A stretch of DNA of 41,514 bases from a virus (Duplodnaviria > Heunggongvirae > Uroviricota > Caudoviricetes), in IMG/VR virus record IMGVR_UViG_2690316276_000005, one strand, 5' to 3'. The position numbers were made by a program, and so were the translations under genes. The notes beneath the pieces are model-generated. The model saw only the letters and a program-made list of their open reading frames with translations. It did no database searches and had not been told where the DNA came from. Shown in pieces: positions 929 through 39,580 of the stretch. Position 1 is the stretch's first letter; each line of letters begins with the position of its first letter.

Positions 929-1344
929 ATGCAGCATTTAAAAAACATTGTCGCAGGTAATCCAAAAACCGTTGAACAATACCAGCTAACAAAGAATTTT
1001 GATGTTATCTGGTTATGGTCCGAAGATGGAAAAAATTGGCATGAGGAATTAAAAAACTTTCAGGAGGATACAATAAAACTGGCTTACACAGTTGAGGGAA
1101 TAATTATTGCTATAGACAAGGATGTATCAGCAATTAATCCAGAAGGTTTAAGTGTCGTTGAGTTGCCTGATATTACAGCAAATCGCCGGGCTGATATTTC
1201 GGGCAACTGGATGTTCAAAGATGGTGCGGTGATAAAGCGAACTTATACCGAGGAAGAGCAAAGGCAACAAGCGGAAAATGAAAAGCAGAGCCTGCTGCAG
1301 CTCGTCAGGGATAAAACCCAGCTGTGGGACTCTCAGCTACAGNN
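929..1344 (+). pseudogene. tfa: Tail-fibre assembly protein (Tfa), 3' end truncated at IS boundary and NN
   Basis: [22 protein letters not shown]... is paralogous to the tfa ORFs at 2878 and 3647-4174. Starts 2 bp after the fibre stop. About 138 codons versus about 175-245 for the paralogs; abuts the IS left end at 1345. Confidence 0.75.
1343..1344. other. Ambiguous bases (NN) at IS left boundary
   Basis: Two N characters directly 5' of the IS terminal TGAGG. Confidence 0.95.
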
Positions 1345-1408
1345 TGAGGTAGCCTGAGTTTAACGGACACTCCTTCCTGAAATAGAATGGCATCAGAAGG
1401 AGCTAATA

Positions 1409-1711
1409 ATGAGCAGAAAAACCCAACGTTACTCTAAAGAGTTCAAAGCCGAAGCTGTCAGAACGGTTCTTGAAAATCAACTTTCGATCAGTGAAGGCGC
1501 TTCCCGATTATCTCTTCCTGAAGGCACTTTAGGACAATGGGTTACCGCCGCCAGAAAAGGGCTCGGTACTCCTGGTTCCCGCACGGTGGCTGAACTGGAA
1601 TCTGAAATTCTGCAACTGCGTAAGGCGTTAAATGAAGCTCGCCTTGAGCGAGATATATTAAAAAAAGCAACAGCGTATTTTGCACAGGAGTCGCTGAAAA
1701 ATACGCGTTAA
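1409..1711 (+). CDS. IS3-family transposase OrfA (HTH / leucine-zipper part)
   Basis: MSRKTQRYSKEFKAEAVRTVLENQ... is typical IS3-family OrfA. Confidence 0.85.
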   Translation: MSRKTQRYSKEFKAEAVRTVLENQLSISEGASRLSLPEGTLGQWVTAARKGLGTPGSRTVAELESEILQLRKALNEARLERDILKKATAYFAQESLKNTR

Positions 1712-1746
1712 TCGAACAATGGCGACAACAATTTCCCATTGAAGCG

Positions 1747-2565
1747 ATGTGTCAGGTATTTGGTGTATCCAGGAGCGGTTATTACAACTGGGTACAGCAT
1801 GAACCCTCAGACAGAAAACAAAGTGATGAGCGGCTAAAACTGGAGATTAAGGTGGCACATATCCGCACTCGCGAAACATATGGAACCCGGCGGCTCCAGA
1901 CGGAGCTGGCAGAGAATGGCATCATCGTTGGTCGTGACCGACTGGCACGTCTTCGTAAGGAGCTAAGGCTACGCTGTAAGCAGAAACGCAAGTTCAGAGC
2001 GACTACGAACTCGAACCACAATCTGCCAGTTGCGCCAAATCTGCTGAACCAGACGTTCGCTCCTACAGCACCAAATCAGGTCTGGGTGGCGGACCTGACG
2101 TATGTTGCCACACAGGAGGGATGGTTGTACCTCGCTGGCATCAAAGATGTTTATACGTGCGAAATTGTCGGCTACGCCATGGGAGAGCGCATGACAAAAG
2201 AGCTGACAGGTAAAGCCCTGTTTATGGCGCTCAGGAGCCAGCGCCCACCTGCCGGGCTAATCCACCACTCTGATCGAGGTTCACAGTACTGCGCATACGA
2301 TTACCGGGTCATACAGGAGCAGTCTGGTCTGAAAACATCAATGTCGCGTAAAGGTAACTGTTACGACAACGCTCCGATGGAAAGCTTCTGGGGAACGCTG
2401 AAAAATGAGAGCCTGAGCCACTATCGTTTTAATAACCGGGATGAAGCCATCTCAGTAATACGGGAATACATTGAGATTTTCTACAATCGTCAGCGTCGTC
2501 ACTCTCGTCTGGGGAATATCTCCCCGGCAGCCTTCAGGGAAAAATATCATCAGATGGCTGCTTAA
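1747..2565 (+). CDS. IS3-family transposase OrfB (DDE catalytic part; normally made as an OrfAB fusion by -1 frameshift)
   Basis: Integrase-core motifs (...WVADLTYV..., HSDRGSQY, ...NRQRRHSRLGNISP) in the frame that is -1 relative to orfA. Confidence 0.85.
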   Translation: MCQVFGVSRSGYYNWVQHEPSDRKQSDERLKLEIKVAHIRTRETYGTRRLQTELAENGIIVGRDRLARLRKELRLRCKQKRKFRATTNSNHNLPVAPNLLNQTFAPTAPNQVWVADLTYVATQEGWLYLAGIKDVYTCEIVGYAMGERMTKELTGKALFMALRSQRPPAGLIHHSDRGSQYCAYDYRVIQEQSGLKTSMSRKGNCYDNAPMESFWGTLKNESLSHYRFNNRDEAISVIREYIEIFYNRQRRHSRLGNISPAAFREKYHQMAA

Positions 2566-2608
2566 AAAAAGAACAAATGGTAGTGTCCGCTATTGCCAGT
2601 ACACCTCA

Positions 2609-2875
2609 GAGTTTTACACCACAACCCGCAAACCCTCTGCGGGAGATGTTGGTGCATATACGCAGGCAGAATGTAACTCAAGGTTTATTACAGGTATTCG
2701 CCTTGGTGGTCTGTTATCTGTTCAGACATGGAATGGTCCCGGATGGTCTGACAGGTCAGGTTATGTTGTTACCGGTTCCGTTAACTCAAACAGAGATGAA
2801 CTAATTGATACAACTCAGGCAAGGCCAATTCAGTATTGCATTAATGGGACGTGGTATAACGCGGGGAGTATTTAA
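2609..2875 (+). pseudogene. Tail-fibre C-terminal variable fragment (5' part missing, begins at IS right end)
   Basis: SEFYTTTRKPSAGDVGA...[16 protein letters not shown] parallels SEFYTTRKPSAGDVGA...INGTWYNV of the other fibres. The N-terminal part of ORF 2471-2875 is IS sequence. Confidence 0.7.
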
Positions 2876-2877
2876 CG

Positions 2878-3618
2878 ATGATGCACTTAAAAAACATTTC
2901 TGCTGGTAATCCTGAAACAAAAGAGCAATACCAGCTAACGAAACAATTTAACATCAAATGGCTTTATACAGAGGATGGGAAAAACTGGTATGAGGAACAA
3001 AAGAACTTTCAGCCTGATACGTTGAAAATGGTCTATGACCACAACGGCGTTATTATTTGTATTGAAAAGGATGTTTCAGCAATTAATCCGGAAGGCGCAA
3101 GCGTCGTTGAGGTTCCTGATATTACAGCAAATCGCCGGGCTGATATTTCGGGCAACTGGATGTTCAAAGATGGTGCGGTGATAAAGCGAACTTATACCGA
3201 GGAAGAGCAAAGGCAACAAGCGGAAAATGAAAAGCAGAGCCTGCTGCAGCTCGTCAGGGATAAAACCCAGCTGTGGGACTCTCAGCTACAGCTGGGCATC
3301 ATTTCNNNNNNNNNNNAGGTTCCTGATATTACAGCAAATCGCCGGGCTGATATTTCAGGTAAATGGATGTTCAAAGATGGCGTAGTGATAAAGCGAACTT
3401 ATACCGGGGAAGAGCAGAGGCAACAAGCGGAAAATGAAAAGCAAAGCCTGCTACAGCTCGTCAGGGATAAAACCCAGCTATGGGACTCACAGCTACGGCT
3501 GGGCATTATTTCCGACGAGAATAAACAAAAATTAACCGAGTGGATGCTCTATGCGCAGAAGGTCGAATCCACAGACACCTCCAGCCTGCCAGTAACGTTT
3601 CCCGAACAACCAGAATGA
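2878..3618 (+). CDS. tfa: Tail-fibre assembly protein (Tfa) with internal tandem duplication around an N-run
   Basis: [22 protein letters not shown]...; the block [60 protein letters not shown] occurs twice, separated by N 3306-3316. Confidence 0.7.
3306..3316. other. Assembly gap (11 N) inside tfa
   Basis: Run of N between two near-identical tandem copies. Confidence 0.95.
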
Positions 3619-3646
3619 AACAAGGCCCGATATCGGGCCTTAATTT

Positions 3647-4174
3647 TTACTCAGGCTTTTGTGGCCATTCTGGCTTTGCCGTATCCACACGGCTGACCAG
3701 AACACTGTAGCGTTCCCATGCTTCCAGTCGTGTGCGTTCCTCGTCTGTTGCCATATTCAGCCTGACAGCGCGTTCCAGCGGCTGGATGACTGATTCAGCT
3801 TCGGAAAGCAATGCGGCCTTTTGTGATTCGGCCTGTTGTTGCTGTTCGTCAGCCGTATAAATCCGTTTAACCACAGCTCCGTCCTTAAACATCCACTTAC
3901 CGGAATCATCAGCACGACGATTAGCTGTAATATCAGGAACCTCAACGACGCTATAACCTTCAGGGTTAAGCGTGGAGGCATCTTTGGTGATGGCGACAAT
4001 AATATTATTTGCATCGTAAACAATCTTTATTGTGTCTGGCTGAAAGTTCTTCACTTCCTCATACCAGTTTTTTCCGTCCTCAGAGTAAAGCCAGATGACT
4101 CCGTGCTTCTTTGTTAACTCATACTGCTCCACTGTTTTAGCATTACCTGCTTTTATGTTCTTTAAGTGCATCAT
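3647..4174 (-). CDS. tfa: Tail-fibre assembly protein (Tfa)
   Basis: [22 protein letters not shown]... paralogous to the plus-strand tfa copies. ATG lies 1 nt after the stf stop. The ORF-track extension to 4207 overlaps stf and is unlikely to be real. Confidence 0.85.
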
Positions 4175-4175
4175 A

Positions 4176-7079
4176 TTAAATACTCGCCACATTATACCAA
4201 GTGCCATTTATATACTTTTGCACTGGCCTGTAATGAACGCCTGCAATATTATCGGCAGAGTTTTTTCCGGTATCCTGTACGTTAATCCCCGTCAGTACAT
4301 AGCCTGACGGGCACTGAAAATTCCATGTTTGCCAGTTGTTCACTCCATAATATTGCTGTGAACCAAGTCGAACATCTTTCACATATCTGGAATCAAAATT
4401 GCCATAGTTGCCGGGAATAACTTGCGAGCCGCAAAGCCAGTTCCCGTTATTATCCATGTACGCCTGACCATCGGTGCCATTGGCTGTCCTTGAGTTATTA
4501 ATCATGTAGATGCCAAATTGCTTATTTCCCAGACCGCCAATCATAAATTTGCGGTCGGCATGGTCCTGACGGAGCAAAGCCTGAGCACCATCAGTGGATA
4601 CCGCATTACGTCCCAAAATAACATTCTGGTCACGCATATGAATCCACATGCCGGTACTACTGTTAATTGCAAAACGGTTTGCAAATATATCCCCTGTAAC
4701 ATCAAGACCATGCCCCATGCTTATCCGGCCAGTTCTGAGATTAAGCGTAAAGGGGCGTAGTGGCCCTATATTACCATTTTCCCCTTCATTCTCTCGTGTA
4801 GGGATGATATGCAGGCATTCTTCAGAACGACGAAAAATGGCACCAAAAGATGAATTAAATATCCTCAGTGCATTGACTGTCGATATTTTCACTTCACTGC
4901 TGAAAAGGGCTTCAACAAGAACAGACAAAGCATTCCATTTAAGATTCATCAGGTCTTTAGGCCGGGTGCCAATGATGCGGTGTCTCCATTTGAAATATTC
5001 ATTGCCGTTGTTGCCTGTTTCAAACCACATGTAGGAATCGGTGTCTGCATCCGAATTATTTTTAAACCCAATCTTTGCCCAGTCAGTATTTCGAATCCAG
5101 GCAAGGATTGAGTCGTTTTCAAAAGTAAGTCCACCGGACAACGTATCGCCATTTTTTTGCACGGCGTTACCAGCCTTGTTTACCGTTTCCTGTAAACCGA
5201 GGTATTCGATAACGGCGGCAACGGTCGATTTCGCAAGAATATCCCGCCCGACTTTTGTCAGGGTTGCCAGGCTGGCGACATCATTCCCCGTAAAATACGG
5301 AAACTTGCCTGCCGCAGTAGTAAGTCCGGCCAGCGCCGTCAGGGTGGCATCTTTCGGTTGCTTACCCGCAAGCGCGTTAGTCATGGTGGTCGCAAAATTC
5401 GGGTCGTTGCCCAGCGCCGCAGCCAGCTCGTTCAGCGTGTTCAGTGCATCAGGTGACGAATCTACAAGGGCGGCAATCGCAGCCATAACGAAAGCCGTGC
5501 TTGCGATTTGGGTATTATTCGTTCCCTGTCGCGCAGTTGGTGTTGTTGGCGTTCCGGTCAGTGCAGGACTATTTAAGGGCGCTTTCTTGTTCGTTTCACC
5601 CATTACCGCCTTAACCGCTTTTGGCGTTGCCGCCAGTGACTCGGAAGTGCTGTTGGTCGCACTGCTGAGCTGTACTATCCCCTTTTTCGTCGTGCTCGCA
5701 TCCTCAAGCGCCACGGCGGATGCAATATCCTCTGCCCGTTTTGCTGCTGTCTCGGCGCGCGTTGCCGCGGATTCAGCAGCAACTTTGCTCTGAGATGCAG
5801 CCGTCGCACTGCCTGCCGCCTCTGATGCTTTCGTTGTTGCTGTCGTGGCACTACCTTTCGCTGCTGACGCTTGTCTGGTCGCCTCATCTTTTGAAGCAGA
5901 CGCAGATGATGCCGATGACGCCGCTGAACTGGCTGACGATGCGGCTGCTGCCTTAGAGGAAGCAGCATTGTCTGCTGAAGTCTTTGCATTTGTTTCAGAG
6001 GTTTTTGCTGCAGAAGCAGACCTCGCTGCTGCAGTGGCTTGCTCAGTGGCTTTGCCAGCCTTCGTTGTGGCTGTTGAAGCGGATGATGCGGCGCTTTCTG
6101 CCGATTTTCCGGCGGCGGTGGCACTGGCTGAGGCCTGCCCGGCACTTGTTGACGCGGCGCTGGCAGACGACGCAGCCGCTGTTTTTGAGCCTGCCGCAGC
6201 TGAGGCACTCTGTCCCGCTGCCGTTTCAGAAGACCTGGCGTTCGTCTCGGACGTTTTGGCCGCCTTCGCAGAATTTGCAGCCGCCGTCGCCGAGGAAGCT
6301 GCGCTACTGGCGCTTGATGATGCGTTCGTTTCTGATGATTTTGCCGCCTCTTTTGAAGCCGACGCATCCCGGGCTGAGGTGGCAGCTTCTGACGCTTTCG
6401 TGGTCGCGGTGGATGCAGAAGTGGCTGCTGATTGTTGTGACGCTGCCGCATTCGTTTCTAACGTTTTCGCCGCACCGGCACTGGTAGCCGCCGCGCTTTT
6501 TGAGGACTCTGCAGCGGCAGCACTTTTTGAGGCTTCAGTGGCCTTTGTTGATGCCGTTCCTGCGCTGGAAGACGCTGACTGAGCCGACGAAGCGGCCTGT
6601 CCGGCTGACGTGCTGGCTGCACGTGCTGAATCTGCAGCATCAGTCGCATGGGTTGCCGCCTCACGGGCTGATGTGCTGGCATCGCTGGCTGATTTCTTCG
6701 CGGCTGCCGTGTTCTGTGCCACCGCGGACGCGTTACGCGCCACCTCTTCCACCATCAGCTCAAAACGGCGCAGTGCCTCCGGACGGGCATCATCCTCCGT
6801 CATGGCACCGAGAAAATCATTCAGCGTACCGGGTCGGGAATCTTCATACACGGTGATGGTCCCGGCATGTGACGGCGGGAATCCTTCCACCAACAGAATA
6901 ACGCTGTACTGACCGTACTCAACGTCCATGCTGTAACGCCCGGCTTCATCCGGATTTTCTGAGGCCAGCGTGTTCACCACCACCGTGGTGCTGTTACGTT
7001 TTGCTTTCAGCTGGATTGTGCAGTTCTGTACCGGTTTTCCTGTGCCGTCTTTCAGTACACCTGAAATCTTTACTGCCAT
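4176..7079 (-). CDS. stf: Side tail fibre protein (lambda Stf-like N-terminus, long Ala/Ser/Thr-rich repeat region, P2 H-like distal part)
   Basis: N-terminus [26 protein letters not shown]... as in lambda Stf; central low-complexity A/S/T repeats; then [33 protein letters not shown]...[10 protein letters not shown]... shared with the P2-H-like fragment at 15804-16594; ends ...[13 protein letters not shown]. True ATG at 7077-7079 (ORF track starts at GTG 7085). Confidence 0.9.
5187..5212. other. Gin/Hin/Cin/Pin-family crossover-like site (imperfect dyad) inside stf
   Basis: TTCCTGTAAACC GA GGTATTCGATAA: two 12-bp imperfectly inverted half-sites around a 2-bp core, resembling the Mu gix site as recalled. 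The reverse complement of window positions 1-17 (TTCTCGTAAACCGAGGT) matches it 15/17. Both lie at the EYLGL codons. Confidence 0.45.
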
Positions 7080-26860: not shown

Positions 26861-27906
26861 TGAGCAGAAAAAATAAAAAAGTGCGCATGAGTTCACGCAT
26901 TGATCTCGCTGATGCGCTCAGGAAAGAATCGTCGCTCAGTGCATTCACATTTGATGGTCCTTACCGCCTGACCGGGCATGACCTGCTGGACAATATGTAC
27001 TGTGCTGATAACGGGCGGTGGTATGAAACCCCGGTGGACTGGTACGGTCTGGCAAGAGCTGCCCGGCAAACGTCCTGGCATCAGTCTGCGCTTTACTTTA
27101 AGCGCAATGTATTGCTCGGCTGCTATATTCCGCACCCGCTGCTTTCCCGGCAGGATTTCTCGGCGCTGGCGCTGGACTGGTTTGTGTTCGGTAACGCATT
27201 CCTTGAGCTTCGGAGCAATATGCTCGGCGAACCGCTTAAATTACGGCACGCCCTGGCGAAATACATGCGACGCGGAAGCGATCTTGAATCATGGTGGTAT
27301 GTGCAGGATGGCAAGGATGCGTTTCAGTTTCGTCCTGGCAAAGTGTGCCACCTGATGAATCCGGATATTAACCAGGAAATCTACGGCATGCCGGAATATC
27401 TTGGCGCATTACTCTCGGCCAGCCTTTCTCATTCGGCGGACATGTTCAGAAAACTGTACTACGACAACGGATCCCACGCCGGGTGCATCATCTACATCGG
27501 TGCAGCGCAGGTAAACCGCGAAAGCATGGACTCCCTGAAAGAAACGCTACAGGGGGCACGTGGTGGTGGTGCGTTTAAAAACGTGCTCATTCATGCGCCC
27601 AACGGGGGCAAAGAGGGGGTGCAAATTTTGCCGTTCCAGCAGATCACCGCAAAGGATGAGTTCATGAATGTTAAGGCGGCATCCCGTGATGATGTGCTGG
27701 CTGCGCACCGCGTTCCGCCGCAACTGATGGGGGCGATGCCGGGCGAAAAAAGTGCGTTTGGTGATGTGGAGAAGGCCGCGCGGGTTTACGCAATTAACGA
27801 GCTGATGCCCGTCATGGAGGCCATGAAGCACATCAATGACTGGCTTGGCGAAGAGGTGATCCGCTTTAACCCTTACGCACTGTTAGACACCCAGCCCACA
27901 TCCTGA
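26860..27906 (+). CDS. Portal vertex protein (P2 gpQ-like)
   Basis: 348 aa; ...FVFGNAFLE...PDINQEIYGMPEYLGALLSASL...AHRVPPQLMG...FGDVEKAARVYAINELMP...; start overlaps P stop (ATGA). Confidence 0.85.
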   Translation: MSRKNKKVRMSSRIDLADALRKESSLSAFTFDGPYRLTGHDLLDNMYCADNGRWYETPVDWYGLARAARQTSWHQSALYFKRNVLLGCYIPHPLLSRQDFSALALDWFVFGNAFLELRSNMLGEPLKLRHALAKYMRRGSDLESWWYVQDGKDAFQFRPGKVCHLMNPDINQEIYGMPEYLGALLSASLSHSADMFRKLYYDNGSHAGCIIYIGAAQVNRESMDSLKETLQGARGGGAFKNVLIHAPNGGKEGVQILPFQQITAKDEFMNVKAASRDDVLAAHRVPPQLMGAMPGEKSAFGDVEKAARVYAINELMPVMEAMKHINDWLGEEVIRFNPYALLDTQPTS

Positions 27907-27933
27907 CGCGCTTCGCTTGTCTGCTGCTTCGCC

Positions 27934-27956
27934 GGGGCATAAAAAATTTATGCCCC
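27934..27956. terminator. Strong hairpin just downstream of the portal gene
   Basis: GGGGCATAAA-AAA-TTTATGCCCC: 10-bp perfect stem flanked by A/T. Confidence 0.5.
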
Positions 27957-28397
27957 GACTCTCCAGCTCCTGTATCAGTCAGATAATTTCACGACGCTTT
28001 CCTGCTGATTGCCATCATCGACAGTCAGACTCTTACGCAATCCCACCTCGTTGACTGCATATTCTCGCCGTCTCAGTGCGATTTTGACGGCCTTACCTTT
28101 CACCCCATCAAATCAAAAGCCCTCACGTCTTTTTCACGCTCAGCGTGAGAAATACAGCCATTCTGTTGTATCTCTGCGACATCGTTCAGGGAATGCTATT
28201 TACCCCCTGAAACGCGGGCTGTTCCCCCGTCACCTGCGCGCAGAAAAAACGCGTTTTTTTGTGCATGCACGGATCCTTGACGGATCCAGCCGCCACGCGG
28301 GCCGGAAGGGCAAAAAGTCGTTCAAAAAAATTGTGCAAATTTGTGCACTATTGTGCATTTATAAAATCAACTAAAAAACACCTAGTGTGACTTACCT

Positions 28398-28583
28398 CTA
28401 CCACTCGATCGGCACGTAGTCATTAAGTTCCGGAGACCAATTGCACTTTTCACATCTGTGTTTTCCATTCTGGCAGATACATAAACGATAACGGCCACAA
28501 TGCGGGCACCCATTTTCACCATTATCATAATCACCGAGCGACCATTCCTGCATAAGCAGCTCTTCTTCATCATCATTTAGCAT
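28398..28583 (-). CDS. Small Cys-rich (zinc-ribbon-like) protein, function unknown
   Basis: 61 aa with CPHCGRYRLCICQNGKHRCEKC; last gene of a co-oriented cluster between replication gene A and portal Q; GC visibly below the flanking structural genes. Confidence 0.5.
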   Translation of the reverse strand: MLNDDEEELLMQEWSLGDYDNGENGCPHCGRYRLCICQNGKHRCEKCNWSPELNDYVPIEW

Positions 28584-28597
28584 TAATCCCCCTTGAG

Positions 28598-28837
28598 CTA
28601 TTTACTCTTCTCGGCCCTCAAAATCATACGAGAACCATCATCCAGCTCCCAATTAATTTCACCGCCTTCTGCCATGACTAGATGCCAAACGAGTTGAGCG
28701 GCCTCGTTGGTTACATCGCGACCGCGATCATTTCCTACGCGGCGTTTTGTTCCGTCTCCTAAGTCACGCATTTTTGCCAATACGATGGTTTTTGATAGCG
28801 GTGAAAAACCAAGCTGTAGTCGTGCTGAATTACTCAC
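28598..28837 (-). CDS. Hypothetical protein (79 aa)
   Basis: Start overlaps the stop of the upstream 174-aa ORF by 4 nt (operon-like coupling). Confidence 0.45.
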   Translation of the reverse strand: MSNSARLQLGFSPLSKTIVLAKMRDLGDGTKRRVGNDRGRDVTNEAAQLVWHLVMAEGGEINWELDDGSRMILRAEKSK

Positions 28838-29358
28838 TGGCTGCCCCCTTTGTACTGTGTTAACTCTTCCTGCTCCTGCATCATGCGATTGACCTGAACG
28901 CGTGTGCGTCGAACGGCAAAATTAAATTGAAACATGAGCCGGAACATTTCTGATGCTTCCGTGTGAGCATCACGGATAGGTGACAGGCGGTACAGTTCTG
29001 CCTCCGTAGCTTGTTGAATCAATGACAGATCAAATTGAAGTGCGGGTCTGGTACATTTTGCACATCTGGCAGCAAGCTCCGGTATTAGTCTCTTAACGAA
29101 GGTGTTTTGCACCGCTTTGTTGATTTGTGTCTGCATCCAAATCGCAAATTTCAGCGAACGCATAAGTTTGATAGCCTCGGGCAGCGGCAGATAGATCATG
29201 CTGGTAGATTTGGGTGGTTGGTGAACCATCTTCACGGATACGCGATTTCGCAGCGTTCGGAAAATCGTGTTCCCAACAACAGCTTCTACGGATACAGGAC
29301 AGGGAGCCAGACCAGCCCGCAGTGCTTCTTTCATTAGCATGTATTCGTATTTTTTCAT
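28834..29358 (-). CDS. Hypothetical protein (174 aa)
   Basis: Uninterrupted ORF, first of three coupled small genes; no family recognised by eye. Confidence 0.5.
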   Translation of the reverse strand: MKKYEYMLMKEALRAGLAPCPVSVEAVVGNTIFRTLRNRVSVKMVHQPPKSTSMIYLPLPEAIKLMRSLKFAIWMQTQINKAVQNTFVKRLIPELAARCAKCTRPALQFDLSLIQQATEAELYRLSPIRDAHTEASEMFRLMFQFNFAVRRTRVQVNRMMQEQEELTQYKGGSQ

Positions 29359-29418
29359 CGTGTTTTCCTCGTGCGGGGCGACAGTGCACCCCGATAAAAT
29401 TAAAAGCCGTCAAATTCG

Positions 29419-29730
29419 TCATTCAGGAAATAATGCCCGGATATTCCCTGCTATCTGACTGGTTATCTGTGCGGTTGGTACTGGCTGTGGCACGGGGCGT
29501 TCTGTCCTGGTTTGTGTCACCGATAACGCCTCATCGTCAGCCCATGCAGCCAGTCGGTAAGCCTCTGCTGGATTCATTTTCAGAAGTGCCAGCCCGGCCA
29601 GAAAAGCCACGCGTTGGCCGCTTTTGCGGGCTTCTGGTGTAAGGCTGCCCAGCCAGGCGCATGCTTCGCTTTCGTTCTTGACGGCCGCAGGCTTCAGATA
29701 GAAACTTATCCGTCTGGTTGGTGTCGTCAT
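29419..29730 (-). CDS. ParR-like ribbon-helix-helix DNA-binding protein (putative adaptor of the ParM-like ATPase)
   Basis: Starts 5 bp after the parM-like stop; about 103 aa; RRISFYLKP...ESEACAWLGSLT...RVAFLAGLALL resembles the R1 ParR N-terminal RHH pattern as recalled. Confidence 0.5.
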   Translation of the reverse strand: MTTPTRRISFYLKPAAVKNESEACAWLGSLTPEARKSGQRVAFLAGLALLKMNPAEAYRLAAWADDEALSVTQTRTERPVPQPVPTAQITSQIAGNIRALFPE

Positions 29731-29734
29731 TGGT

Positions 29735-30694
29735 TTACTCCTTGTCCATTGCGTACAGCCCATTAACCAGAGCAAACTGTGGCACCCCGTCCGCGATGAA
29801 AGTCGCATTAACTCCGCAGGCTTCGCGGATAGCGGGTGCCACAATCTCCGCCCCTCCACCGACAACCATCACCCGCCCGTAACCCGAAAAACCCGCCAGC
29901 GCGCGGATCACGCGTTGTTTCAGTGTTTCTTCCTTTTCACGAATAACCGCCATCAGGCTGGCGTAATGCGCGTCATTGTGGATGTGCTGGCGCAGCCAGG
30001 CTTCATCATGGCGATGTTCGATAATGGTATTGGCGATGTGGTGACTGGTGCGCATACCGTTAGTGGCCATCACCGACAGTACGGCATCGGCCATCAGAGA
30101 AACGCCTACGTGTGGATCGCAAAACACCTGGCTGATACCTGCCAGTTGCCCCTGAACCTTTGCCACATCCAGCGTGGTTCCGCCCAAATCCACAATCAGC
30201 AGGGATTCAAACGGACTCATGTCAGCCAGTGCCTTAAAGCCAGCCGGAATGGATTCAGGCATAACCCGCACGTTACGGATAGTGAATGCTTCGCCGTTCT
30301 GGTACTCCACCGGGCGCATAACGTTCGCTTTTTTGCGGTTGATGTTGGCCATGTCCGGCTGTGCGTTTGTGTCGAAATACTCGCTCAGTGGCAGGGTGAC
30401 AACCACATCCACCTCCTGTGGCGTGATGCCTGATTTGACCAGCGCGTGATGAATGGCAATGACATTTACATCGCTGTACTGGTATTGCGTGTCGGTTGTC
30501 TGGACAAAGCGATCGCTGACCGGATCAAAACCATAGCGCACGCCATCAAGCATGTAGTTCGCGGGCTGCATGCCACCGAACGGCGCAGACCATTCCGACT
30601 TGAAGCTGTTCGGGCTGATGGCGTTGCGGCGTTCGCCGTTCTCAGTCCATGCCAGCTTGATGTTGGTGGAGCCGTCGTCGATACAAATTTTCAT
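29735..30694 (-). CDS. ParM/StbA-like actin-fold ATPase
   Basis: [35 protein letters not shown]... parallels R1 ParM [21 protein letters not shown]...ISPNSFKREW; also ...[13 protein letters not shown]... and ...[12 protein letters not shown]... phosphate/adenosine motifs. Confidence 0.85.
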   Translation of the reverse strand: [319 protein letters not shown]

Positions 30695-30723
30695 GTCGCT
30701 TTTCCTTATGTTGATTAATTAAT

Positions 30724-30839
30724 CGTTTACGGGATTCTGAAATCCCGTTTTTGCCTGTTTTGTGCGCGCTTCATATATCGCTGCGCGTTTTTTGCTCATT
30801 TACGGGATTCGTGAGTCCCGTTTCTGTCTGTTTTTTGTT
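30724..30839. repeat. Two direct repeats of about 40 bp, each containing a palindrome (ACGGGATT-N4-AATCCCGT); candidate parC-like centromere or origin
   Basis: Repeat 1 at 30724-30764 (palindrome 30729-30748); repeat 2 at 30797-30839 (palindrome 30802-30821, one arm mismatch). Directly upstream of the parM-like start and overlapping the 3' end of gene A. Confidence 0.5.
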
Positions 30840-35653: not shown

Positions 35654-35932
35654 TTATTTTGTCATCTGCACGTATTTCTCTGCGTTTCTGATGGTTTTCA
35701 GGAAAATTGCGAAGAGATTTACTTTGCGTTTTGTGTTTCTTCCTTCTTGAGTAACGGGAATTACCGATCTATCAGCCTGCCTTCTTACAGCGAGAATGCT
35801 TTGATTTGTGCGTTTCGCATAATCCTCTAGGCTTTCTTCAAGTACCGGTAGCCCATGTTCATTACGGTATGGGTAGAACGCCGCCAAACGCTCAAAATCC
35901 GCTTGTTCGTATGTGTTAAGGACTTTTGCCAT
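35654..35932 (-). CDS. First early-operon gene, divergent from the repressor (Cox/Apl position; identity not recognised)
   Basis: 92-aa ORF starting about 95 bp from the repressor start on the opposite strand; assignment by position only. Confidence 0.4.
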   Translation of the reverse strand: MAKVLNTYEQADFERLAAFYPYRNEHGLPVLEESLEDYAKRTNQSILAVRRQADRSVIPVTQEGRNTKRKVNLFAIFLKTIRNAEKYVQMTK

Positions 35933-36027: not shown

Positions 36028-36339
36028 ATGTCAATAGAGATATCAAAGAAGCTAAAAGCAATTCGAGAATCTGAGGGGCTTAGTCAGGCAAAGTTCGCGG
36101 ATTCAATAGGTATTGCGGTTGGTACGGTTAAGCAATACGAGACTGGTATTCGAGGTGTGGGAACGGAGGTTTTACTGAAAATCACAATGCACCCGGAATT
36201 TAAAAAATACACTACGTGGTTGATGAGTAACGAAACAAATGAGGCTGCTGGGCAGATCAGTCCTTCTCTCTCCCCTGATGGGCCAGAAAACACATCGTCT
36301 TCTCAAAAATCCCGCAAGACTGGCACACAGCCCGGCTAA
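36028..36339 (+). CDS. Immunity repressor (P2 C-like)
   Basis: MSIEISKKLKAIRESEGLSQAKFADSIGIAVGTVKQYETG...MHPEFKKYTTWLMSNETNEAAGQISP parallels P2 C (...TPQFTKYTLWFMTNQIAPESGQIAP...) as recalled. Confidence 0.75.
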   Translation: MSIEISKKLKAIRESEGLSQAKFADSIGIAVGTVKQYETGIRGVGTEVLLKITMHPEFKKYTTWLMSNETNEAAGQISPSLSPDGPENTSSSQKSRKTGTQPG

Positions 36340-36388
36340 TCATGGAACGCTGGGGGCATGGTGGTCTTGTAACGCTGGGGCTTCACGA

Positions 36389-37366
36389 ATGAGCATAAAA
36401 TCAATTCCGGGAGGGTATCTTCTTGACATGCGTCCTGAGGGGCGTAAAGGCAAACGCATTCGCAAAAAATTTAAAACGAAATCGGATGCAGTTTTATATG
36501 AGCGGTGGGTGCTGGCGCAACAGCATAACAATGAGTGGAAAGGAAACTCCATTGATCGCCGTCCGCTGTCAGTGCTTATTGACTTGTGGTGGAAATACCA
36601 CGGCCAGCTAATGAAGTCAGGGCATAACACGCGCCTTAAATTGCTGCGCTTGAGTGAGGCAATGGATGACCCGTGCGTGCATAAACTTAATACAACGATG
36701 CTCACCGAGCTACGTGTGTCCAGGATAGAGCAGGGGATACAGCCCAGCACCATAAATCGAGAGATTGGGGCGTTAAGCGCGATGTTTACCGCACTCATCT
36801 CATCCGGCCATTTTCTTAACGATAACCCCGTTCAAGGCCTTAAAGGAATGAAGGTTAACGAGCGTGAAATGGGATATCTGAGTAAGTCTGAATGTGTTCA
36901 GTTGCTGGATGCACTGGCTGAAAATCCCGATGAACGGCTGGCCGTCGAAATCCTTCTGTCGACCGGGGCGCGATGGGGCGAGGTAGCGGCACTGGAGCAG
37001 CGCCGTGTTCTTCATTGTCGAATCACTTTTTCAAAAACGAAGAACAGCAAAAACCGTACCGTTCCTATTTCTGAAAGCCTGTTTGAAAAGATCAAAAAAC
37101 GGGGCGGGAAACTGGTGTTTCCGACGCTGGATTATTCATTGGTTCGCGATGTCATCAAAACGGTCGCACCTGATGTTCCTGACGGCCAGGCTGTTCATGC
37201 GCTGCGCCACACCTTCGCCAGTCATTTCATGATGAACGGCGGCAATATTCTGACGCTCCAGAAAATTCTGGGGCACGCAAAGATTCAGACAACGATGATT
37301 TATGCCCATCTTGCGCCGGATTACTTGCAGGATGCGGTGAGGTTTAATCCCTTGGGAGGAATGTAA
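36389..37366 (+). CDS. int: Tyrosine integrase (P2-type)
   Basis: MSIKSIPGGYLLDMRPEGRKGKRIRKKFKTKSDA... N-terminal arm; catalytic region ...LLSTGARWGE...HALRHTFASHFMMNGGNILTLQKILGHAKIQTTMIYAHL (R..H-x-x-R..Y). Confidence 0.9.
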   Translation: MSIKSIPGGYLLDMRPEGRKGKRIRKKFKTKSDAVLYERWVLAQQHNNEWKGNSIDRRPLSVLIDLWWKYHGQLMKSGHNTRLKLLRLSEAMDDPCVHKLNTTMLTELRVSRIEQGIQPSTINREIGALSAMFTALISSGHFLNDNPVQGLKGMKVNEREMGYLSKSECVQLLDALAENPDERLAVEILLSTGARWGEVAALEQRRVLHCRITFSKTKNSKNRTVPISESLFEKIKKRGGKLVFPTLDYSLVRDVIKTVAPDVPDGQAVHALRHTFASHFMMNGGNILTLQKILGHAKIQTTMIYAHLAPDYLQDAVRFNPLGGM

Positions 37367-37368
37367 CT

Positions 37369-37869
37369 ATGGAAATAAAAAAACCTACAAAAAAAGAGTT
37401 ATATGACTATTTACTATCGAAATATATAGAAGATAAATGCAAAGAAGAAGCTGATGAAATCAATAAGAAGTCGATGAGTCGTGTCAAAAAACATAAAGAG
37501 CGGCTGATGGAGATTACGCCAGAAATCTTCTTCCGTTTCTTGTCTGAGAAGGGGGTCTCCAGTGTCTGCCCTTCATGTGGATCGTCGCGATTATCTGTTC
37601 CAGAAAGTATGGATCTTTGCTGGGATAAAAATAAGAAACCAGAAAATTTTAACAATCTACCCCTGGAGGAACAGAGTGAGTTAATTAAAGAGAACATAAA
37701 GCATTATGTATCTTATGCTTTTTTGGGTGATGTTAAGAGCATACCTGATATGCGCAAAACTTATTACACGCTGCATTGCCTGAATTGTGGTTACCTGAGC
37801 CTTTATCGTACGTCTGCGGTGCTGAAGTGGTTGGAGAAAGACAAAGCGCAGGATGGTGATAATGGGTAA
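37369..37869 (+). CDS. AT-rich hypothetical protein with two CxxC pairs (zinc-ribbon-like)
   Basis: 166 aa, very Lys/Glu-rich, CPSCG ... CLNCG; codon usage visibly AT-rich versus neighbours; starts 3 bp after int stop. Confidence 0.55.
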   Translation: MEIKKPTKKELYDYLLSKYIEDKCKEEADEINKKSMSRVKKHKERLMEITPEIFFRFLSEKGVSSVCPSCGSSRLSVPESMDLCWDKNKKPENFNNLPLEEQSELIKENIKHYVSYAFLGDVKSIPDMRKTYYTLHCLNCGYLSLYRTSAVLKWLEKDKAQDGDNG

Positions 37870-38407
37870 TGTAGCAAGAAATCTTTTCGGTAATTCAGCA
37901 GGTAGTGTGTCGCATTCTGAGCGTGATGTGCTTTATCATGGTGGCGATGGCGGCAGTAGTGGAGGCGGAATGTCAGATAAACTTGAAAGGCGAATTGAGC
38001 GGCTCGAAGGTGATTTATCGCTAACAAGAAACGACCTTGCGACGCTTGCTGAACGCACTACAAACCTCTCAACTAAAGCCGATGTTGGTGAGGTGAAAGG
38101 TGAACTCAAAGCAGACATAGCACATCTGAAAGGTGATCTTGAATGCGATATTGCGAATCTGAAAGGTGAGCTTAAATCTGATACAGCTAACCTGAAAGAG
38201 CAGCTCAAATCAGACATTAACAGCCTGAAGGGTGAGCTTACCGAAGCGATGGATAAACGCTTTGACAAGATTATGGATGAGATGAATCGGCGGTTTGACA
38301 AGGTTGATGATAATACGAAGTGGCGTTGGAGTGGCATTATTGTGCCAGTGTGCACAACCATTTTCACAGCGGCGGTTGCTGTATTTGTTGCTAAATTTGT
38401 TGGCTGA
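37853..38407 (+). CDS. Coiled-coil protein with C-terminal transmembrane anchor (XhlA-like architecture); likely true start near 37970
   Basis: Heptad-like repeats (LKGDLECDIANLKGELKSDTANLKEQLKSDINSLKGEL) and C-terminal hydrophobic helix IIVPVCTTIFTAAVAVFVAKFV. Confidence 0.55.
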   Translation: MVIMGNVARNLFGNSAGSVSHSERDVLYHGGDGGSSGGGMSDKLERRIERLEGDLSLTRNDLATLAERTTNLSTKADVGEVKGELKADIAHLKGDLECDIANLKGELKSDTANLKEQLKSDINSLKGELTEAMDKRFDKIMDEMNRRFDKVDDNTKWRWSGIIVPVCTTIFTAAVAVFVAKFVG

Positions 38408-38516
38408 TGATCCACAAATTGACCACATCTCTGTTATTTGTTGTGGTTGGCTGTGTTTTTGTGTGTCTGTAAGTCTTTGATAATTACCTAACTTATTGAT
38501 TTTTGTTTGTGTTTAT

Positions 38517-38539
38517 GGCCGCTCTGCGGCCTTTTTTCT
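38517..38539 (+). terminator. Rho-independent terminator upstream of btuC
   Basis: GGCCGC-TCTG-GCGGCC followed by TTTTTTC. Confidence 0.5.
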
Positions 38540-38599
38540 TTTCACTGTCGAAGAGTCACCGTAAAATCAACGCCATGACACTTCAGCAGAACGGATACC

Positions 38600-39580
38600 A
38601 TGCTGACACTTGCCCGCCAACAACAGCGACAAAATATTCGCTGGTTATTATGCCTGTCAGTTTTGATGCTGCTGGCGCTTCTCTTAAGCCTTTGCGCCGG
38701 TGAACAATGGATTTCGCCAGGTGACTGGTTTACTCCTCGTGGCGAACTGTTCGTCTGGCAAATTCGCCTGCCACGTACGCTGGCTGTATTGCTGGTTGGT
38801 GCGGCGCTGGCTATATCCGGCGCTGTAATGCAGGCGTTGTTTGAAAATCCTCTGGCAGAACCTGGACTACTTGGCGTCTCTAACGGCGCAGGCGTGGGGC
38901 TTATCGCCGCGGTATTGCTTGGGCAAGGGCAACTCCCCAACTGGGCGCTAGGGCTGTGTGCGATTGCTGGCGCGCTTATCATCACTTTAATACTCTTACG
39001 TTTCGCCCGTCGTCATCTTTCGACCAGTCGGTTATTGCTGGCTGGCGTTGCATTAGGGATTATCTGTAGCGCACTAATGACGTGGGCTATCTACTTTTCC
39101 ACCTCTGTTGATTTACGTCAGCTGATGTACTGGATGATGGGCGGTTTTGGCGGCGTAGACTGGCGGCAAAGCTGGCTGATGCTGGCATTGATCCCCGTGT
39201 TGTTGTGGATCTGTTGTCAGTCCAGGCCGATGAATATGTTAGCACTTGGCGAGATCTCGGCGCGGCAACTGGGTTTACCCCTGTGGTTCTGGCGCAATGT
39301 GCTGGTGGCAGCGACCGGCTGGATGGTTGGCGTCAGTGTGGCGCTGGCGGGTGCTATCGGCTTTATTGGTCTGGTGATCCCACATATTCTTCGGTTGTGT
39401 GGTTTAACCGATCATCGCGTATTACTTCCCGGCTGCGCGCTGGCAGGGGCGAGCGCAGTGCTGCTGGCCGATATTGTAGCGCGCCTGGCATTAGCTGCCG
39501 CAGAGCTGCCTATTGGCGTGGTCACCGCAACGTTGGGTGCGCCGGTGTTTATCTGGTTATTGTTAAAAGCAGGACGTTAG
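38600..39580 (+). CDS. btuC: Vitamin B12 ABC transporter permease BtuC
   Basis: 326 aa, [44 protein letters not shown]... matches E. coli BtuC as recalled. Confidence 0.95.

Follow-up and report, generated by a model that had tools for sequence, protein, structure and literature searches.

The lambda exclusion module RexAB is made of two genes, for a soluble and a membrane protein, that are transcribed in the lysogen together with the immunity repressor; RexB has four transmembrane helices. Lactococcal Sie2009 is a membrane-associated Sie protein of a lysogeny module. [quoted passage not shown] In P2, the int-att interval is a minor defence hotspot that accounts for 3% of the known P2 defence systems, and loci of unknown genes from P4 satellites protected against phages in six of eight cases (Nucleic Acids Res 2026, PMC13586616). 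In DUF1640 proteins, the C-terminal stalk begins with a beta-layer motif, [aliphatic]-A-T-K-[polar]-[D/E] (PMC4786415).

We have analyzed a gene pair located between the integrase gene and the attachment site of a P2/186-like prophage integrated at the ihfA terminator, in a stretch of 41,514 nucleotides hereafter called the window. The reading that we favour, and to which we would give an even chance, is that the pair is a mobile int-attP cassette most likely protecting the lysogen from other phages. The locus contains the following features:

36028..36339, + strand: immunity repressor, C/CI-like HTH, 103 aa (RefSeq annotation, identical RM8426 sequence)
36389..37366, + strand: tyrosine integrase, 325 aa (Pfam Int_N 2e-28, Phage_integrase 6e-20)
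37369..37869, + strand: gene 1, 166-aa cytoplasmic zinc-ribbon protein (predicted) of the phrog_4293 family (match 8e-23)
37862..38407, + strand: gene 2, 181-aa tail-anchored coiled coil (predicted), DUF1640/CCDC90-like, its start overlapping the gene 1 stop by 8 bp
38408..38516, no strand: phage-side att arm, 109 bp, 32% GC, common to prophages with differing cassettes
38517..38541, + strand: attR core GGCCGCTCTGCGGCCTTTTTTCTTT, a copy of the ihfA terminator (alignment of empty site, attL and attR, and terminator scan)
38600..39580, + strand: host btuC, the first gene past the prophage

The repressor region (36028-36336) shows 100% identity in tblastn searches, and the lysogenic operon starts with the repressor, followed by int and then by genes 1 and 2.

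Both AT-rich genes are prophage cargo. The attR core, defined with an attL sequence taken from RM8426, occupies positions 38517-38541 and both genes therefore lie inside the prophage; prophage-free genomes match the window from 38517 onward only, in agreement with a preliminary description of this DNA that had located the genes at the prophage/host boundary. The empty-site comparison proposed there did not reveal the two as conserved host genes present without the prophage. This alternative, by which both ORFs would be conserved host genes upstream of btuC and not prophage cargo, was rejected by that comparison, had no evidence in its favour, and retains practically no probability: btuC is found in all 5426 complete E. 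coli genomes whereas the pair occurs in 23-36, and in K-12-like genomes btuC directly follows ihfA, ~100 bp apart. A repeat search found no arm-type repeats in the att arm. A 100-aa ORF at 1409-1711 is not ihfA but orfA of an IS3-family transposase, so that attL must be sought beyond the window.

Among E. coli prophages at the ihfA/btuC site, int is 97-98.5% identical at the nucleotide level and the att arm 89-97% identical where the cassette differs, whereas the interval from int to the arm is just 15-65% identical. Being divergent between a conserved int and a conserved arm, this interval behaves as a swap slot, and it constitutes an int-att accessory hotspot of a P2-like prophage. The accessory status first proposed for the genes thus holds, since near relatives at the same site keep int and arm and hold other cassettes. 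Three of the four divergent slot occupants are versions of the same pair, namely a phrog_4293 zinc ribbon with a DUF1640-like coiled coil that is tail-anchored. Of the complete E. coli genomes, about 5% carry a prophage with the present int-attP slot (att arm in 296 of 5426), including Shiga-toxin-associated serotypes O157:H7, O145, O103, and O26, and the window's own cassette is present in 23-36 E. coli genomes. Of 263 genomes matching a query built from the other cassettes, 60 were examined as a spread sample: 20 had a divergent version of the pair (cassette D), four a short version (cassette B), and 35 an unrelated 131-aa gene (cassette C), one match being spurious; by these sampled proportions, ~45% of the slot-bearing genomes hold some version of the pair. 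The present occupants are absent from the report on the P2 int-att interval (PMC13586616) and from the P2-hotspot papers Rousset 2022 and Vassallo 2022. In the L011 allele, gene 1 is 54% and gene 2 92% identical to the window at the protein level, with eight of the 14 gene 2 differences within residues 1-21. Judging from these sequences, the divergence of gene 1, the N-terminal changes in gene 2, and the variable repeats of its stalk would compose an arms-race pattern. Even if the pair does not serve defence, the present data document a site within a lysogenic operon where cassettes are exchanged between clean boundaries.

Gene 1 starts, as initially described, directly next to int, with an ATG 3 bp past the end of the int stop codon that is preceded by a GGGAGGA Shine-Dalgarno sequence. 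Its protein is indeed rich in Lys and Glu (24% together) and contains two CxxC pairs:

37567..37578, + strand: first CxxC of gene 1 (CPSC, residues 67-70)
37777..37788, + strand: second CxxC of gene 1 (CLNC, residues 137-140)

The four cysteines (C67, C70, C137, and C140) are invariant in an alignment of 59 homologues, so that the CxxC motif is not due to chance; one Trp is also invariant in the same alignment. The AF2 model (pLDDT 82) has strands around the cysteines at residues 79-83, 110-118, 131-137, and 143-147, and the two invariant CxxC knuckles, placed on beta-hairpins, would form the predicted metal site of a zinc ribbon. No specific Pfam zinc-ribbon family was matched at cut-off by gene 1, and the best hit of a PDB sequence search with its profile had an E value of 0.5. 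The gene 1 family comprises 91 clusters at 50% identity among 1.84 billion representative proteins searched; the ten named clusters that were looked up are all from Enterobacterales, and all gene 1 variants match phrog_4293. A tblastn search of 50,697 phage records and 72,556 plasmids gave no match to gene 1. The AT-richness that the preliminary description attributed to both genes is strong for gene 1 (38.5% GC against a mean of 53.2%, sd 5.5%, for 501-bp windows across the prophage part of the window, just 0.1% of which reach such a low value) and, according to the GC figures, only moderate for gene 2 (45.2% GC, GC3 38.5%).

Gene 2 probably starts at ATG 37862 (181 aa), with AGGA 8 nt upstream, and not at the in-frame position 37853 (184 aa) indicated earlier, because in divergent homologues its start overlaps the gene 1 stop by 1, 4, 8 or 14 bp. 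The RefSeq start at 37970 (145 aa), corrected by the present analysis, drops an N-terminal region that is kept in Salmonella, Providencia, Hafnia, and Yersinia. Hydropathy and the AF2 model bear out the coiled coil and C-terminal membrane anchor first described for this protein, in which we distinguish:

37940..37969, + strand: Gly-rich linker GGDGGSSGGG of the gene 2 N-terminal tail, behind a conserved RDV motif (kept in divergent homologues)
38066..38083, + strand: LSTKAD, matching the DUF1640 beta-layer motif with which the stalk starts (residues 69-74)
38094..38198, + strand: 33-bp tandem repeat, 3.2 copies, encoding the 11-residue stalk repeats (Tandem Repeats Finder)
38330..38392, + strand: C-terminal transmembrane anchor (predicted), followed by only 4 residues

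In the AF2 model of the monomer, residues 1-35 form a disordered N-terminal tail (pLDDT < 50), followed by helices at 37-69 and 72-146, with a break at residues 70-71, and by a transmembrane helix at 153-180, within which residues 159-177 are hydrophobic (mean Kyte-Doolittle 2.43). T71 is nearly invariant, and K72, D74, and the juxtamembrane Trp are invariant. Gene 2 has a self-identity of 49% at lag 11; the copy number of the stalk repeats differs between homologues, whose lengths step by 11 aa, from 101 to 156 aa and from 159 to 192 aa.

The pair is conserved and uncharacterised, without a matching defence family, solved structure or paper. Several negative results speak against an anti-phage reading: neither protein matched an NCBIfam or Pfam family at cut-off or gave a significant match in PADLOC-DB 2.0, where the best matches were coiled-coil segments of LmuB, LeoBC, and ZorA (<=21 bits) and DUF3800_VII (14 bits), and no nuclease, NTPase or other usual effector domain was found in the pair. 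A literature search by RefSeq protein accessions retrieved no paper on either protein, a PDB sequence search with gene 2 gave a best E value of 0.06, and matches of gene 2 in Liberibacter and APSE phages were not informative. The family closest to gene 2 is DUF1640 (PF07798), which the window's protein matches at 24.5 bits (E 2.7e-5), below the gathering cut-off of 33.5 bits, and RefSeq names the protein as DUF1640 or CCDC90 family. Gene 2 possesses the beta-layer motif in the form LSTKAD, with Ser replacing Ala, while its relatives have FATKSD or LSTKAD; the C-terminal transmembrane anchor of the family is likewise predicted by the model. We found no bacterial function in the DUF1640 literature.

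This kinship suggests another possible role, in which the pair would serve lysogenic conversion and affect host physiology instead of phages: gene 2 would be a scaffold bringing its zinc-ribbon partner, or else factors of the host, to the inner membrane, much as the MCUR1/CCDC90B scaffolds of the same family. ElaB and YqjD, ribosome-binding tail-anchored proteins, offer an alternative likeness. The match of 17 of 25 gene 2 family members to the DUF1640 model (E up to 0.01, best 6.4e-12), the combination of beta-layer motif and membrane anchor, the absence of an enzymatic domain, and a Flk_N tail-anchored protein (209 aa) that in Hafnia precedes the pair in the same operon all agree with such a scaffold. 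Nevertheless, we consider it unlikely: alleles are swapped at one fixed position, gene 1 diverges fast, and the pair is restricted to prophage edges, a combination better known from conflict genes, and an unrelated gene fills the slot in about half of the related prophages.

The two ORFs are consistently paired and so, from their sequences, form one unit: every gene 1 homologue with downstream sequence is directly followed by a gene 2-like ORF, usually with an overlap of 1-14 bp. The pair is spread across Enterobacterales, where it occurs after int, between repressor and int (Yersinia and Hafnia), at prophage ends or alone, as in the stand-alone copy that Pantoea/Mixta carries, flanked by host genes. 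In an episomal P2-like genome of Klebsiella, int is followed by gene 1-like and gene 2-like ORFs and then by tail genes, so that the pair travels with the excised phage, and since only two of 80 loci around integrase relatives of other species have it, it is not tied to the integrase lineage. The view of the genes as recently acquired therefore needs to be restricted to allele exchange, because the pair family is widespread in P2-like lysogeny operons and AT-rich everywhere. As for its expression, a promoter scan found no promoter-like site on the + strand from 36400 to 37369; nor did it locate the lysogenic promoter, a point against an anti-phage reading. Downstream of gene 2, the scan gave a single strong terminator-like site (six G-C pairs), the att core, and a weak one (three G-C pairs) lies inside gene 2 at 38366-38382. 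In the related prophage BTP5, repressor and int are transcribed in all tested lysogen conditions (PMC7067206), and the pair is probably expressed in the lysogen together with them.

Small two-gene units of this kind also recall addiction cassettes. Gene 2 would then be a membrane toxin and gene 1 its antidote, in a TA-like cassette stabilising the prophage and benefiting the element instead of defending the host. The putative antidote comes first, and the overlaps of 1-14 bp and the small sizes fit a type II TA layout; gene 2 has a single transmembrane helix and weak holin/haemolysin profile matches (phrog_689 at 0.004, phrog_1193 at 0.023); a stand-alone chromosomal copy exists; and a Hok/Gef gene at the opposite end of the RM8426 prophage indicates that TA-type cargo does occur in the element. 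However, the pair lacks its own promoter/operator, gene 1 shows no DNA-binding antitoxin fold, neither protein matches a TA family, and it is not obvious what a simple membrane toxin would do with a long cytoplasmic stalk of variable repeats. The pair is thus not a type II TA system by the usual features (an autoregulated promoter of its own, a DNA-binding antitoxin, and a recognisable toxin domain), just gene order and overlap fitting, and we regard an addiction role, which overlaps the abortive-infection form of our main explanation, as improbable.

It is even harder to accept that the pair serves the phage life cycle, either as an XhlA-like lysis accessory or as a modulator of Int-mediated integration/excision, and we deem this very unlikely. 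Gene 1 starts just 3 bp past int, and XhlA is the best Pfam match of short-form gene 2 relatives (E 5e-4 to 2e-3). Yet their scores (18.5 and 20.7 bits) fall short of the cut-off of 34.7, and gene 2 itself has no match to XhlA (PF10779) at E up to 1. The label "XhlA-like" given in the preliminary description therefore stands as an architectural analogy, the DUF1640/CCDC90-like proteins being closer, and the lysis role suggested with it is not supported and appears unlikely, as LysB and LysC are encoded at ~20.0-20.6 kb, ~17 kb from the pair and on the opposite strand. Regarding integration and excision, a Cox/Apl-like gene is already present at 35657-35932, and prophages with cassette C lack the pair while their int and arm are near-identical, which makes the pair dispensable for recombination. 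The stand-alone copies also argue against a service to the phage cycle.

Returning to the protection of the lysogen, the defence or exclusion role raised in the preliminary description is plausible, and the pair might work as follows. Without a promoter of its own, it would be read from a repressor-int-gene 1-gene 2 transcript ending at the att core terminator and would therefore be made in the lysogen. Gene 1 would be a soluble four-Cys zinc-ribbon protein and gene 2 would be anchored in the inner membrane by its C-terminal helix, its stalk and disordered tail projecting into the cytoplasm. Gene 1, the variable sensor or specificity part, would dock on the N-terminal tail of gene 2, a contact suggested by the linkage of the genes and by one recombination boundary in their sequences. 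Gene 2 would be the membrane effector or barrier, which might either block incoming DNA, in a Sie/Ltp-like manner, or kill the cell on infection, in a RexAB-like manner. Although more doubtful, it is possible that the pair represents a new two-component anti-phage system of Enterobacterales prophages, in which a DUF1640 stalk, fixed in the inner membrane and with its length set by the 11-residue repeats, carries a fast-evolving zinc-ribbon sensor on its N-terminal tail, and which upon infection blocks genome entry or permeabilises the membrane. If true, bacterial DUF1640 proteins, which are prokaryotic relatives of the mitochondrial MCUR1/CCDC90B, would thereby receive their first function. 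If the role is defence or exclusion, the pair would extend the P2 defence repertoire by a protein architecture new to it and provide a natural allele series for specificity, with four gene 1 types and stalks differing by whole 11-residue repeats.

Compared with known systems, the pair combines familiar traits in a distinct manner. It occupies the same interval as the P2 int-att hotspot, but its occupants here are not recognised by PADLOC. Gene 2 resembles XhlA of the Bacillus PBSX lysis cassette in its small size, N-terminal coiled coil, and C-terminal transmembrane helix; by contrast, the pair lies outside any lysis cassette, with no adjoining holin or endolysin. Gene 2 shares with DUF1640/CCDC90-like proteins, including MCUR1 and CCDC90B, the C-terminal transmembrane anchor, long stalk, and beta-layer motif, but its pre-stalk part would consist of one 33-residue helix and a disordered Gly-rich tail, its stalk consists of a varying number of 11-residue repeats, and it always has a zinc-ribbon gene as its partner and lies in the lysogeny operon of a prophage. 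With RexAB, the likeness is one of operon logic only: there is no sequence or fold similarity, with no Rex match in Pfam, PHROGs or PADLOC, and in contrast to RexB, gene 2 would have one C-terminal transmembrane helix and a long stalk. The Sie proteins Ltp and Sie2009 are similar in being membrane-associated, encoded in the int/repressor module, and expressed in the prophage. Nevertheless, Ltp is a single lipoprotein on the external side of the membrane, whereas most of gene 2 is predicted to lie in the cytoplasm and the pair always adds a second, soluble protein.

The window consists of E. coli DNA, and its positions 36200-38700 are 100% identical to the O26 strain RM8426 and to three other genomes. 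Two small genes, which we call gene 1 and gene 2, lie there between the integrase of a P2-like prophage and the host gene btuC:

Genes of the integrase-btuC region
36028-36339, plus strand: HTH immunity repressor
36389-37366, plus strand: tyrosine integrase (int)
37369-37869, plus strand: gene 1, 166 aa
ending at 38407, plus strand: gene 2
after gene 2 and before btuC: AT-rich spacer, 109 bp
beyond the 109-bp spacer, plus strand: btuC, btuE and btuD, in that order

Gene 1, preceded by a GGGAGGA Shine-Dalgarno sequence, starts 3 bp past the int stop, and its product is as initially described, rich in lysine and glutamate (24% together) with two CxxC pairs (residues 67-70 and 137-140). Its AT-richness was likewise borne out, with a GC content of 38.5% against 53.2% (sd 5.5%) in the prophage part of the window, a value as low being reached by only 0.1% of 501-bp windows. 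Gene 2 has 45% GC, and in every locus checked the module stays below its surroundings (39-45% versus 44-54%).

The preliminary description placed this cargo at the prophage/host boundary, and comparison with empty sites supports that placement. The btuC part of the region is matched by all 5426 complete E. coli genomes, int with both genes by only 23 and gene 2 by 36. In genomes devoid of the element, the match to the window starts only at 38517, which refutes the possibility that the pair are host genes present without the prophage; btuC lies ~100 bp after ihfA in a K-12-like genome. When the window's right junction is aligned with the empty site and with the left junction of RM8426, a 25-bp att core emerges, GGCCGCTCTGCGGCCTTTTTTCTTT (38517-38541), which is the ihfA terminator. 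Both genes therefore lie within the prophage, and 110 bp separate them from the core. The window does not reach the left junction; its left end lies in a tail-fibre region into which an IS3-family element has intruded (orfA 1409-1711, HTH_Tnp_1; orfB 1747-2565, rve). This element sits among three Caudo_TAP tail-fibre assembly genes (929-1357, 2878-3618 and 3647-4207, minus strand), so that the region 929-4207 is disrupted or rearranged; it differs from that of the RM8426 prophage. Cargo also adjoins att on the attL side of RM8426 (L004 10822-13159), where genes for a 500-aa PIN-domain protein and a Hok/Gef toxin flank ogr.

The phage-side arm (38408-38516, 109 bp) occurs in 296 of the 5426 genomes, always chromosomal and in single copy. 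When the window is aligned in turn to each of five E. coli prophages that occupy this site, identity is 97-98.5% in int and 89-97% in the arm, and drops to 15-65% from the int stop to the arm. By these alignments, the interval behaves as a sharply bounded swap slot, in which we found four kinds of occupant:

Occupants of the slot between int and att
Cassette A: the window's pair; in 23-36 genomes
Cassette B: pair of 127 aa + 99 aa; strain F344
Cassette C: single unrelated 131-aa gene, phrog_14142; O104:H4 and others
Cassette D: pair of 120 aa + 145 aa; CREC-591

A query of non-A cassettes (B, C and D plus the variant gene 1 allele of comparison locus L011) matched 263 genomes; of 60 sampled from these at even spacing, 35 contained C, 20 D and 4 B, and one was a spurious match. 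The gene of cassette C, the commonest occupant sampled (L094 3107-3502 in E. coli O104:H4 2011C-3493, and in many other genomes), encodes a protein without Pfam match, and phrog_14142 has no known function. Since cassette C takes its place, the pair is dispensable. A 2026 paper (PMC13586616) describes the int-att interval of P2-like prophages as a minor hotspot for defence that accounts for 3% of the P2 systems recognised; thus, the slot itself is a known kind of feature, and what is new is its occupant, an undescribed conserved pair without characterised relatives. Between the portal gene and gpA, at the classical P2 hotspot (27906-30771), the window carries plasmid-type segregation genes, ParM (29738-30694, minus strand) and a partition/stability gene (29422-29730, minus strand), the remainder differing from RM8426. 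An integrase 98% identical to that of the window is encoded on a contig of an assembly labelled Vagococcus sp. WN89Y, a Firmicute, likely through contamination or mislabelling; neither gene 1 nor gene 2 has a match at this locus.

Cassettes B and D proved to be diverged forms of A. The first gene of each matches gene 1 (B: tblastn 5e-14) and the same PHROG family, phrog_4293, and their second genes encode a coiled coil with a C-terminal TM helix, accompanied in D by a Gly-rich tail; in B, neither this tail nor the ATKxD motif is present. More generally, gene 1 and gene 2 form one conserved module, found in the same order in several arrangements:

Arrangements of the pair
Behind int: Salmonella (there, too, at btuC), Yersinia enterocolitica, and a P2-like genome of Klebsiella sequenced as an episome
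Between repressor and int: Yersinia massiliensis, Hafnia
At a prophage end adjoining tail genes: Salmonella, Enterobacter, Providencia
Alone among host genes: Pantoea/Mixta

The Pantoea/Mixta copy (L126 4001-4658) is a short-form pair (121 aa + 99 aa) flanked by a CdaR-like regulator and DUF3461/dapD/glnD, with no phage genes within 4 kb on either side; because this stand-alone copy exists, the pair appears self-sufficient. Two Salmonella loci (L123 and L124, 4700-6900) share the same pair-bearing prophage end next to different host neighbours (Peptidase_U32 versus a ribosome hibernation factor), implying that the element uses several insertion sites or is transposable. In Hafnia (L127 3350-3979), the lysogenic operon that holds the pair encodes a further tail-anchored protein (209 aa) with a Flk_N domain and a C-terminal hydrophobic helix, its gene lying after the repressor and before the gene 1-like one. 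According to gene calls, the gene 1 stop and the gene 2 start overlap by 1, 4, 8 or 14 bp, an arrangement that suggests translational coupling; the Klebsiella episome instead has a GTG start immediately after the gene 1 stop.

Searching 1.84 billion representative proteins with a gene 1 profile retrieved 91 clusters (100-180 aa). All ten named clusters among those looked up come from Enterobacterales and are annotated 'hypothetical', and neither the phage nor the plasmid collection contained a match. Four cysteines and one tryptophan are invariant, with an FFxFL helix before the first knuckle and an acidic C-terminus. In the AF2 model (pLDDT 82), a long helix at the N-terminus (8-46), which short forms lack, is accompanied by a small sheet bearing both knuckles and by a C-terminal helix.

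For gene 2, the overlap pattern in homologues makes 37862 the likely start (ATGGGTAA, 181 aa), correcting the preliminary description. The RefSeq start at 37970 (WP_005142454.1, 145 aa) omits 36 residues conserved across genera, an N-terminal tail with an RD(V/I/F) motif and a Gly-rich run, and many database entries of the family (101-156 aa) may be similarly truncated. The proposed coiled coil with a C-terminal membrane anchor holds: the protein has 49% self-identity at lag 11, coded by a 33-bp tandem repeat (38094-38198), and ends with a hydrophobic helix (159-177) plus four residues. Its AF2 monomer (pLDDT 63) is disordered over 1-35, followed by a helix (37-69), a break (70-71), a 75-residue helix (72-146) and a TM helix (153-180). 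Homologue lengths differ in steps of 11 residues, so the stalk grows or shrinks by whole repeats. Given the lack of a signal peptide and the four-residue tail beyond the TM helix, we expect most of the protein to reside in the cytoplasm. The XhlA-like architecture first suggested survives as architecture but not as kinship: XhlA gives no Pfam match to the window's protein and is the best Pfam match, far under cut-off, only of short forms (95-99 aa), which lack the beta-layer motif. The nearest family is DUF1640-like, RefSeq using the name DUF1640 or CCDC90. The DUF1640 profile PF07798 is matched by 17 of 25 relatives (best E-value 6.4e-12), although the window's protein scores 24.5 bits, under the cut-off of 33.5. 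DUF1640 proteins have a beta-layer motif, [aliphatic]-A-T-K-[polar]-[D/E], where the stalk begins (PMC4786415), and gene 2 has LSTKAD at that position, with K72 and D74 invariant and T71 nearly so. A host-directed membrane scaffold is an alternative reading of the pair that we consider unlikely.

A scan of the plus strand found no promoter-like site from the int start to gene 1, and past gene 2 the sole strong terminator-like site is the att core, a weak one lying inside gene 2 (38366-38382). The pair lies between repressor and int in two genera, and BTP5, a related prophage of Salmonella, transcribes its repressor and int under all conditions tested (PMC7067206). The pair is thus probably made in the lysogen from a repressor-int transcript. 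A role as phage life-cycle accessory seems very improbable to us.

Dispensability, apparent self-sufficiency, a documented defence slot, probable expression in the lysogen and allele exchange are traits of conflict genes. Between the window and L011, the gene 1 proteins are 54% identical and the gene 2 proteins 92%, 8 of the 14 gene 2 differences falling within the first 21 residues. Exchange therefore involves, as one unit, gene 1 and the N-terminal tail of gene 2, a hint that the two proteins touch and that gene 1 would be the variable specificity part. These traits and this exchange pattern lead us to favour a membrane-based exclusion or abortive-infection module, at roughly even chances; an addiction module would be a rather improbable alternative. 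Two results speak against the favoured reading: the pair has no recognisable effector domain, and no defence-family match was found. Despite the absence of homology to either, the exclusion or abortive-infection module that we favour resembles RexAB in its operon logic and can be likened to the Sie/Ltp genes of lysogeny modules (PMC3952083).
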